From the sequence record PQ666539: 64,000 nucleotides of DNA; one strand, given 5' to 3'. The stretch is from Shigella phage sb1. The position numbers were made by a program, and so were the translations under genes. Numbering within the stretch: position 1 is the stretch's first letter; every line of letters begins with the position of its first letter. Below are positions 10,404 to 11,822 of the stretch, piece by piece. The notes under the pieces are model-generated. The model made no database searches and was not told where the DNA came from. It saw only the letters and a list, made by a program, of their open reading frames with translations.

Positions 10404-11822
10404 TTATGGATAGGTATAGATGATACCAGTTTCTAAAGCAGTTTTATGAATGATGTATCCATTGCGCGATTCTTGAACATCGACTTCTGGATAGTCTTTT
10501 ATCATCTTCTGAAGAGTGTAACGATGCAAGTAATACTTAATATCTGGGTCGTCAGTTTTCCAATCTTTACCTTCTTCGGTCATTTTTTGGATTTCATCCA
10601 TAACCCACCAACCGCACCAGATATAAGCCGAAGTACGATGTGGAAGAGGATGAAAATAAGGCAATTCACCTTCTGGTTCCGGAGCAACTTTATCAGTTAC
10701 CTGAACTTGGCCTGTTGCTTTAACTGTTTTACTATCATAGTCGGTTGCTGTAACGACAGCAGTAACTTCAATAGTTTGACTTCCAATAGATGATGTATCA
10801 ACGGTGTATACATTAGTTGACCCTTCTACAGGAGAAGAATCTTTCTTCCATGAATAAGTAATTTGTGCTGCTTCAGGTGCTCCAGTAACATTAGCCGTAA
10901 ATGTAGCCGAAGCATCTTGCTGAACGTTAATAGAAGGAGGAGTCAATGTAACCTGTGGATTCATTGTCTTCTTATTAACTGTCAATGATACTTCATTAGA
11001 AGTAACTTCCTTTTCATTGTAATTTTCTGCAGTTACTTGCGCTACACACTTAACTGTTTTAGCTCCAACTGTGGTAGGAGTATAGTTAAATGTAGTAGTA
11101 GTTTCTCCATCGACCAGAGAACCGTCAACATACCACTGATACGTAGCAGATGCCCCATCAGGTTGAGAAGCTAAGGCAGCAGTAAATTCAACGGCTGTTC
11201 CAATTACCCCGGCAGCAGGACTATCAGGAGTTACTGCCAAGGTAGTCGTCTGCGTCTTTTTATTAACTGTTAATGATACTTCATTAGAAGTAACTGTTTT
11301 TGCGTCATAATCTGCTGCTGTTACTTGGGCTACGCATTTGATTTTTTTTACTCCGCTTGTGTCAGGAGTGTAATTGAATGTAGCGTCAGTTGCTTCGTCT
11401 ACAGGAGAACCGTCAACGTGCCATTGATACGTAGCGTTTGCACCTGATGGCTGTGAAGCTAAGGCAGCGGTAAATTCAATTGGAGTTCCAATCACTCCAG
11501 CATCAGGGCTACCAGGAGTTACAGCTAAAGTAGTTGTTTGTGTCTTATTTTGAACTGTGATAGTTGTCGTAGTTTCTGCTGTTTCAGGTTCAGATTCTGG
11601 AACTGTATTTGTTGCAACTACTTTAATAGTCTTTTGACCTGCAGGTCCTTTTAGTACATAGCTAAAAGTTGCTTCAGCTCCATCCTGTGGAACATTATCT
11701 ACACTCCAAGCATAGGTAATAGTTCCACCTTCAGTTTGACCACTGGGTGTAGCAGTAAACTGCTTGGTTTCATCAATAACTCCTGTTGGGGTTTTAGGAG
11801 TTATATCAACTGTAAAAGTCAT
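10404..11822 (-). CDS. hoc: highly immunogenic outer capsid protein Hoc, 472 aa with an extra tandemly duplicated Ig-like domain
   Basis: N- and C-terminal sequence match T4 Hoc (376 aa); two consecutive 96-aa units starting KTQTTTLAVTP. Confidence 0.85.
   Translation of the reverse strand: MTFTVDITPKTPTGVIDETKQFTATPSGQTEGGTITYAWSVDNVPQDGAEATFSYVLKGPAGQKTIKVVATNTVPESEPETAETTTTITVQNKTQTTTLAVTPGSPDAGVIGTPIEFTAALASQPSGANATYQWHVDGSPVDEATDATFNYTPDTSGVKKIKCVAQVTAADYDAKTVTSNEVSLTVNKKTQTTTLAVTPDSPAAGVIGTAVEFTAALASQPDGASATYQWYVDGSLVDGETTTTFNYTPTTVGAKTVKCVAQVTAENYNEKEVTSNEVSLTVNKKTMNPQVTLTPPSINVQQDASATFTANVTGAPEAAQITYSWKKDSSPVEGSTNVYTVDTSSIGSQTIEVTAVVTATDYDSKTVKATGQVQVTDKVAPEPEGELPYFHPLPHRTSAYIWCGWWVMDEIQKMTEEGKDWKTDDPDIKYYLHRYTLQKMIKDYPEVDVQESRNGYIIHKTALETGIIYTYP
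10966..11541 (-). repeat. tandem duplication of two ~288-bp units inside hoc (Ig-like domain repeat)
   Basis: near-identical DNA blocks ~288 bp apart, e.g. tattaactgt(c/t)aatgatacttcattagaagtaac at ~10975 and ~11263. Confidence 0.8.

Follow-up and report, generated by a model that had tools for sequence, protein, structure and literature searches.

The hoc gene of Shigella phage sb1 carries its domain-2 Ig-like module twice in tandem. It is very probably a genuine, inherited allele, shared with relatives and drawn from a mosaic array of such modules. All coordinates refer to a 64,000-nt stretch of sequence record PQ666539 (the window), in which the ORF for Hoc (highly immunogenic outer capsid protein), here in its four-Ig form, occupies 10404..11822 on the minus strand and encodes 472 aa before the stop. 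From the N-terminus the protein consists of D1, D2a, D2b, D3 and a capsid-binding C-terminal domain. No exact match to the protein turned up among 15 billion collected proteins; the allele is new, and the architecture is not.

Locus and identity of hoc

A phmmer search of PDB sequences matched the window Hoc with that of T4 (E = 8.8e-254); its PHROG matches were 1149, 'Hoc-like head decoration' (E = 9.5e-148), and 21694. The gene sits in the head-gene region, flanked by inh and 24.3, and the gene order (24 - rnlB - 24.2 - 24.3 - hoc - inh - uvsW) is the same in RB32, pSs-1 and the other loci compared. It starts 9 nt beyond inh. A putative ribosome-binding site read from the sequence (AAGGA; 11829..11833, minus strand) overlaps the inh stop codon (11832-11834; the inh ORF ends at 11832).

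In a consensus scan, promoter and terminator matches inside hoc were at chance level, the sole exception being a terminator-like, GC-rich hairpin with a T-run shortly after the stop codon of hoc (10376..10393, minus strand). The hairpin has a 7-bp stem with 5 GC pairs (AAGGGGCTTCGGCCCCTT then TCTTCATTTT); it is strong, and is a predicted terminator only. No Rfam family, tRNA or other feature was found overlapping the repeat. On the plus strand, an ORF of 115 aa (10446-10793) runs antisense to conserved Hoc coding sequence.

Anatomy of the repeat

A repeat search found a 288-nt segment twice in direct orientation, at 10966-11253 and at 11254-11541 (76% identical). Tandem Repeats Finder reported the array at 10966-11558 (period 288, 2.1 copies, 77% matches, score 699), and it is the only long-period tandem repeat across the 64-kb window. 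When the hoc ORF was shuffled (n = 20), the best self-match was 109/288 positions, against 220/288 observed at offset 288. The copies are adjacent, head to tail and in frame, with a similarity far above chance.

The first-pass annotation, which had placed the repeat at 10966-11541 and its protein identity at about 80%, had the location right, but its coordinates miss the codon phase by 5 nt. In codon register, unit 1 (domain 2a, aa 93-188) is 11259..11546 and unit 2 (domain 2b, aa 189-284) is 10971..11258, both on the minus strand. The units are clearly repeated, at a measured identity of 220/288 nt (76.4%) and 74/96 aa (77.1%).

T4 Hoc (376 aa; PDB 5vf3_Z) was aligned to query residues 1-189 (T4 1-189) and again, without gaps, to residues 189-472 (T4 93-376). 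T4 domain 2 is thus aligned twice, and the extra 96 aa are a second copy of it. Each unit is one structural domain with the reading frame kept: 288 nt correspond to 96 aa, and the boundaries coincide with those of T4 D2 (93-188) and of the structure model. The claim of a tandemly duplicated Ig-like domain (472 aa versus 376 aa in T4) is therefore borne out by the ORF, the repeat searches and the T4 alignment alike. In a tree of D2-type units (below), unit 1 is the 'extra', first-position unit, and unit 2 groups with T4-type D2 units as the counterpart of the single domain 2 of T4.

The remaining domains, all on the minus strand, were assigned from the same alignment. D1 (aa 1-92, 11547..11822), the predicted distal tip of the fibre, aligns with T4 Hoc 1-92, and D3 (aa 285-380, 10683..10970) aligns with T4 Hoc 189-284. 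The C-terminal domain (aa 381-472, 10407..10682) aligns with few differences to T4 Hoc 285-376, which has been solved on the capsid (5vf3, 8t1x and others).

Domain folds and structure model

The window Hoc was searched against Pfam and modelled with AlphaFold using 33 homologues as input. Pfam returned PKD (37.3 bits; cut-off 23.5), I-set (24.3 bits; cut-off 23.7) and Ig_3, with Ig_3 and I-set both falling within D3 (aa 289-374). The model contains four confident beta-sandwich domains (aa 1-91, 93-188, 189-284 and 285-376; pLDDT ~88-96, and 86-94 per 10-residue block in D1). The best Foldseek matches in the PDB were strings of four Ig domains (ICAM-5 D1-D4, Dscam), and RB49 Hoc (3shs) also matched (E = 1.7e-10). 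The four Ig-like domains proposed from the first inspection are supported by Pfam, T4 alignment, AlphaFold and Foldseek.

The C-terminal domain was modelled poorly (pLDDT 33-61), so its assignment to capsid binding is drawn from sequence identity to T4 alone. This identity is high: the domain, including the YIWCGWWVMDE motif, is nearly identical to the homologous part of T4 Hoc (residues about 281-376). The geometry between domains is uncertain in the model (pTM 0.50), and any added reach of the fibre is accordingly an estimate.

Frequency of the four-Ig form

The window genome is Tequatrovirus-like, at ~96-97% identity over 25 kb to ECp13, Ec_YwIITB1, sb2-sb4, pSs-1 and others. Over its full 1419 nt, hoc aligned in one piece to that of Killian (95.3%) and to those of HP3, ime09, PP01 and Sf21 (91-94%). 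The frequency of the form was sampled at even spacing across the 656 phage records that matched; in 592 of these, at least 80% of the query is covered. Among the full-length hoc rows in this sample, 18 of 52 measured 1418-1425 nt, with HP3, PP01, wV7 and Killian among them, and the other 34 measured 1117-1137 nt.

Sizes were also tallied in protein. The best 120 protein clusters (90% identity) comprised 81 of 376-379 aa, 30 of 468-472 aa and 9 of 567-570 aa, and several of the 472-aa clusters held dozens to more than 100 member sequences. Length variants of 283, 376 and 568 aa were also seen; the Hoc of EP01 (283 aa) is without D3, and that of CCU7 (567 aa) has two divergent extra modules. Compared among relatives, the 472-474-aa form recurs with the same unit boundaries in about a third. 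The four-Ig Hoc is an already known, common length variant.

Divergence and positional orthology of the two units

The two copies in the window differ at 68 of 288 positions, distributed 13, 15 and 40 over codon positions 1, 2 and 3 (dN 0.145, dS 0.99, dN/dS 0.15). In six other four-Ig phages, the within-genome dS between units was 0.61-1.37, and the dS of their orthologous D3 plus C-terminal domain against the window was 0.04-0.48. Across all seven four-Ig phages dN/dS between units was 0.08-0.25. Both units are under purifying selection.

Units were then compared by position. Unit 1 of the window is 81-98% identical in nucleotides to first units elsewhere, and 75-81% to any second unit or single D2. 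Unit 2 is 84-97% identical to second units elsewhere, and 82-88% to the single D2 of T4, p000v and LF73P3. Across the four-Ig phages overall the identities were 81-98% between first units, 83-97% between second units and 75-81% between first and second units, and second units were 82-93% identical to the single D2 of the same three phages. When 168 D2-type units were placed in a tree, those in first position in 472- and 568-aa Hocs grouped together, and T4-type single units joined the later units. The two units are long-standing positional paralogues common to many phages, and they did not arise in the window phage.

Mosaicism of the D2 array

The first-pass annotation had called the direct repeat a likely recombination-unstable site. 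This stands in so far as the array gains and loses units and swaps segments across phages; within the window genome it is not expected to hold, as the copies share at most 24 identical nt in a row and both persist. The longest perfect match between units was 24 nt in the window and 19-35 nt in the six other four-Ig phages. Given this short match, and the persistence of both copies despite their divergence, high intramolecular instability is not expected. The lability of the repeat holds only on evolutionary timescales.

On those timescales, copy number was 1, 2 or 3 units among Hocs with flanks at least 95% identical, and hybrid units were found. On a tree of the flanks (119 proteins) copy number needs 26 changes, against a mean of 34 (minimum 28) for shuffled labels; the tree is shallow and itself recombinant, and the count of 26 is rough. 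The nearest flank neighbour has an equal copy number for only 42% of multi-unit proteins. For the window, the nearest flank relatives are the three-unit Hocs of UGKSEcP1 and UGKSEcP2 (98.2% in protein), followed by two- and one-unit forms (~96%).

Two of these comparisons were resolved to segments. Between UGKSEcP1 and the window, D1 is identical at 275/276 nt and unit 1 matches unit 1 at 274/288 nt. Unit 2 of the window resembles unit 2 of UGKSEcP1 over its first ~110 nt and unit 3 from ~nt 143. Fitted to UGKSEcP1 with one in-register deletion of 288 nt at unit-2 nt 108-112, the window array leaves 22 mismatches over 576 nt, against 81 at the worst breakpoint. The one-unit Hoc of LF73P3 (378 aa) shows no difference from the window in the first 228 nt of D1 and has 99% nucleotide identity to it in D3. 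Along its single unit the match is to window unit 1 at nt 1-102 and then to unit 2 at nt 109-213, a stretch of 31 consecutive informative sites; it returns to unit 1 at nt 219-251 (11 sites) and finishes on unit 2. The 64 informative sites fall into 10 runs, fewer than in any of 100,000 permutations.

A single-crossover origin of one-unit alleles from the window array was considered and rejected: LF73P3 needs at least 3 switches, and T4 and p000v fit poorly (18-26 mismatches), so that a one-step deletion model is too simple. Across phages the D2 array is mosaic. Phages that circulate together reshuffle its unit number and segments through recombination, both homologous and unequal. The only mildly new element of this analysis is the mosaic D2 array of 1 to 3 units as seen across the phage population.

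Mosaicism bears on how the array began. The array may have been 'born divergent', by an unequal crossover between co-infecting phages with different D2 alleles, in which case the high dS between units would date no duplication. This rival concerns the origin of the array only, and it is a possible account, held as the less probable one. It draws on the circulation of unit-distinguishing segments in single-unit Hocs (6 clusters carry the loop YVDGSLVDGETTTTFN, and 12 carry the C-terminal stretch VTAENYNEKEVT), on the unit-1-type loop in the single D2 of EP01, and on the pervasive mosaicism seen with LF73P3 and UGKSEcP1. Fixed nucleotide differences between first and second units, moreover, amount to only 4 positions across the 7 phages. 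Against it, the unit-1-type loop (SPV.EAT.ATFN) occurs almost exclusively in units at the first position, as would be expected for a long-standing paralogue. The array may have either history, and the data cannot separate an ancient duplication from a born-divergent crossover.

Proposed function of the extra module

By homology with T4, the C-terminal domain would anchor one Hoc monomer at the centre of each hexamer of the major capsid protein (gp23), and the N-terminal Ig string would point outward, with four domains here against three in T4. T4 Hoc is present at one monomer per gp23 hexamer centre, is dispensable for growth, and forms a fibre of 180 A over four domains (PMC10385173). Scaled from these dimensions (180 A / 4 domains), the extra module would lengthen the fibre by about one Ig domain, or ~4-5 nm. 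The suggestions of the first-pass annotation that the fibre would reach further from the capsid and would change the surface used for display are thus plausible.

The module would also add a second D2-type binding surface, with an effect on adherence suggested by analogy to related phages. Adherence of Hoc Ig domains to mucin glycans or bacterial surfaces has been reported for T4, PNJ-6, PNJ-9 and PMBT63 (PMC10385173, PMC11853027, PMC13435897), and binding to E. coli surfaces has been noted for the Hocs of T4 and RB49, in particular for D2 and D3 (PMC10385173). In PNJ-9, whose Hoc is a variant without D3, MUC2 binding was mapped to S183-L184-T185 of D2 (PMC11853027). The corresponding SLT motif is present in both window units (aa 183-185 and 279-281), and is offered as a lead only for possible MUC2 binding. 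Differences between the units were counted by secondary structure, and fell at 14 of 45 non-strand and 8 of 51 strand positions (Fisher p = 0.09). This is no significant enrichment in loops, and functional divergence or divergent specificity of the two units is therefore not demonstrated.

A further reading is that the Tequatrovirus D2 array acts as an adaptive, recombination-driven cassette system, in which frequent switching among 1, 2 and 3 units and shuffling of loop segments between units tune fibre length, avidity and glycan specificity to mucosal or bacterial-surface environments. We regard this as rather doubtful. If it were true, the array would be a capsid-side analogue of tail-fibre mosaicism, and the window would represent one state of the polymorphism.

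At the other extreme, the extra domain could be neutral baggage, with no functional consequence and drifting towards loss. Hoc is non-essential in the laboratory (PMC10385173), and unit number varies freely among close relatives, both of which fit such drift. It is nevertheless improbable: purifying selection acts on both units in all seven four-Ig phages, neither unit contains a frameshift or stop although stops hit many other genes of the window, and about a third of relatives keep the form.

Recency and authenticity of the duplication

A recent duplication in the lineage of the window phage, giving a fresh and unstable repeat, would account for a tandem, in-frame array with an exact period of 288 nt. 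It was rejected as very improbable on dS and positional orthology: the dS between copies is ~1.0, the longest identical run is 24 nt, units at the same position in other phages reach 98% (unit 1) and 97% (unit 2) identity against 76% for the neighbouring unit, and the form is shared by about a third of relatives. The remaining alternative, that an assembler expanded the repeat and the phage truly carries a 376-aa gene, gains some credit from the doubtful quality of the source but is effectively excluded, since an assembler cannot invent copies that differ at 68/288 positions in a coding pattern, the hoc ORF is intact, the errors in the window are substitutions and not indels, and the same orthologous two-unit form occurs in the independently assembled genomes of Killian, HP3, PP01, wV7, slur02, PTK and pSs-1.

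Quality of the source record

Genes of the window were compared one by one with those of pSs-1. At least 27 premature stop codons were found in conserved, mostly essential genes, namely gp22 (2), gp23, uvsW.1, uvsY, gp51, gp27 (2), gp29, gp48, a hypothetical gene, Rz, alc (2), rnlA (3), nrdA (2, in adjacent codons), gp32, gp34 (4), gp35 and gp36. All arise by substitution, nearly all G>T or C>A in the coding sense, and no frameshifting indel was found in the stop-bearing genes. A phage with such stops would not be viable.

Over 1-25 kb, substitutions private to the window comprised 119 G>T/C>A against 26 T>G/A>C, evenly spread at ~5 per kb; on the pSs-1 branch the counts were 27 and 41. Pairwise counts over 25-64 kb were 272 versus 110. 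The G:C>T:A signature looks like oxidative damage, base-calling error or a mutagenised source.

In hoc there is no premature stop, and the window-private changes inside the repeat units include no G>T. The C-terminal domain carries two window-private G>T changes, V390F and S428I, which are suspect and stand at otherwise conserved positions. Some private changes in the window Hoc may be sequence errors. The damage or low quality of the source does not affect the repeat.

Use of the allele

As a discovery the allele carries little weight; the same architecture is already present in many public phage genomes, and the literature fits. In Hoc display or studies of mucus adherence, such a phage can be expected to present a fibre that exceeds that of T4 by about one domain and has two D2-type modules, and residue numbering between phages must allow for a register shift of 96 aa. 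The series of 1-3 units, with its hybrid units and its scatter relative to the flanks, provides a tractable natural series on Ig-fibre length or valency and adherence.

Comparison with known Hoc proteins

T4 Hoc (376 aa; PDB 5vf3, 8t1x, 8t9r) is the same gene at the same locus with the same domain types, and its D1, D3 and C-terminal domain align end to end with those of the window, differing at few positions. An AlphaFold and cryo-EM model of T4 Hoc is given in PMC10385173. It differs in having a single domain 2, whereas the window has two D2-type units and 96 aa more. The T4 D2 is slightly closer to window unit 2 (82% nt) than to unit 1 (80%).

The 472-474-aa Hocs of the Escherichia phages Killian, HP3, PP01, wV7, slur02, PTK and ime09 and of the Shigella phages pSs-1, sb2 and sb4 are identical to the window in architecture and unit boundaries. 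Full-length hoc in this group has 86.7-95.3% nucleotide identity to that of the window; their units are positional orthologues, and the differences are allelic only. The Hocs of UGKSEcP1 and UGKSEcP2 (568-570 aa) have three D2 units. Their unit 1 equals window unit 1 at 94/96 aa and their unit 3 equals window unit 2 at 91/96 aa; they have one unit more than the window, whose unit 2 resembles a hybrid between their second and third units that crosses over near nt 108-112.

The Klebsiella T4-like phages Marfa and PMBT63 resemble the window in size (~471-472 aa) and in having four Ig-like domains and a C-terminal domain. The Hoc of PMBT63 has been described as carrying 'an additional Ig-like domain' compared with T4 and as holding the phage on mucin (PMC13435897). 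In Marfa, however, an offset-identity scan found the repeated module to be of the D3 type and not D2 (65/80 residues identical at a 94-aa offset from aa 186), and its Hoc is ~48% identical overall to that of the window. Relatives have Hocs of 377 or 282 aa. The Klebsiella four-Ig form appears to derive from an independent duplication of a D3-type module, which would make gain and loss of Ig modules in Hoc recurrent.

Shorter and longer forms follow the same principle. The Hocs of PNJ-9 and EP01, with two Ig domains and D3 missing, share with the window a conserved anchor and a variable number of Ig domains, and differ in their modules; that of Serratia phage Muldoon joins 10 Ig domains to the same kind of anchor. 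Shortened to very long Hocs span 283 aa to 1174 aa. Among the papers searched, none specifically describes a D2 duplication in Tequatrovirus. Fokine et al. surveyed 650 homologues and described Hoc as a conserved capsid-binding domain with a variable string of up to 10 Ig-like domains (PMC10385173), and the D2 duplication sits squarely within this published picture of a conserved anchor and a variable Ig number.

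Premature stops and substitution spectrum

The window was compared with the genome of the related Shigella phage pSs-1, and at least 27 in-frame premature stop codons were found across it, in conserved and mainly essential genes. Several genes were interrupted more than once (gp22, gp27, alc and nrdA twice each, rnlA three times and gp34 four times), and single stops were found in gp23, uvsW.1, uvsY, gp51, gp29, gp48, Rz, gp32, gp35, gp36 and one hypothetical gene. Stops were located between 5 and 23 kb at 5097, 5367, 6672, 14130, 15198, 16664, 17689, 18130, 18952, 20739 and 22643 (5097, 14130, 15198, 18130, 18952 and 22643 are approximate, calculated from codon numbers), between 38 and 49 kb at 38074, 38253, 38439, 38722, 39295, 39448, 43454, 43457 and 48267, and between 51 and 57 kb at 51772, 51841, 52702, 54211, 55164 and 56285. 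Relative to pSs-1, every premature stop was a single-base substitution, mainly GAA>TAA, GAG>TAG, GGA>TGA or TCA>TAA, and no frameshifting indels were detected in the stop-bearing genes. Because a phage carrying these stops could not be viable, the source sequence of the window is probably damaged or of low quality.

Substitutions private to the window were evenly distributed at approximately 5 per kb. Among those at 1–25 kb, G:C>T:A changes were in strong excess over the reverse (119 vs 26); pairwise counts for 25–64 kb gave 272 vs 110, and the pSs-1 branch was balanced (27 vs 41). The excess of G:C>T:A in the window is a signature of 8-oxoG-like damage or of error. The GenBank record of another related Shigella phage, sb4, has the same bias in weaker form (68 vs 28), together with many split genes.

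Three non-synonymous changes private to the window were identified in Hoc, the capsid decoration fibre protein: V390F (10655), S428I (10540) and M441I (10500). All three sites are conserved in relatives and lie inside the capsid-binding domain. Two of the three, V390F and S428I, are G>T changes and for this reason are likely to be sequence errors and not real variants.

Other features of the window

A 205-aa ORF of PHROG 5104 (function unknown) was located on the (+) strand at 818–1435, between gp18 and gp19, and returned no Pfam match. No gene is known at the corresponding place in T4. The DNA of the ORF was 100% identical to gp180 of pSs-1, with flanking genes approximately 96% identical; the ORF may be an insert that is mobile or was exchanged recently. 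In gp37, which encodes the distal long tail fibre, a short tandem repeat of 21 nt (2 copies, 90% matches) was found close to the 3' end, at 59624–59664.

Hoc arrays in related phages

The hoc CDS is annotated in 2 or 3 fragments in the records of T6 (RefSeq NC_054907; locus L029, 301–1432) and T2 (PV648363). The locus spans 1132 or 1117 nt in these records vs 1131 nt, reflecting apparent frameshifts or indels in classical T-even reference sequences.

The single D2 module of the Tequatrovirus LF73P3 (L030) was a clean patchwork of the two tandem D2-type units of the window, and the three-unit array of UGKSEcP1 (L035) was related to the window array by one in-register crossover and a conversion-like patch. 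The sequences flanking the D2 units were 99–100% identical between the window and each of these phages. Among Klebsiella T4-like phages, Hoc was 282, 377 or 471–472 aa long (L006; also L005, L007 and L011). The 471-aa Hoc of Klebsiella phage Marfa (L006, 1501–2916) matched itself at 65 of 80 residues at a 94-aa offset, and its D3-type module seems to have been independently duplicated in tandem.
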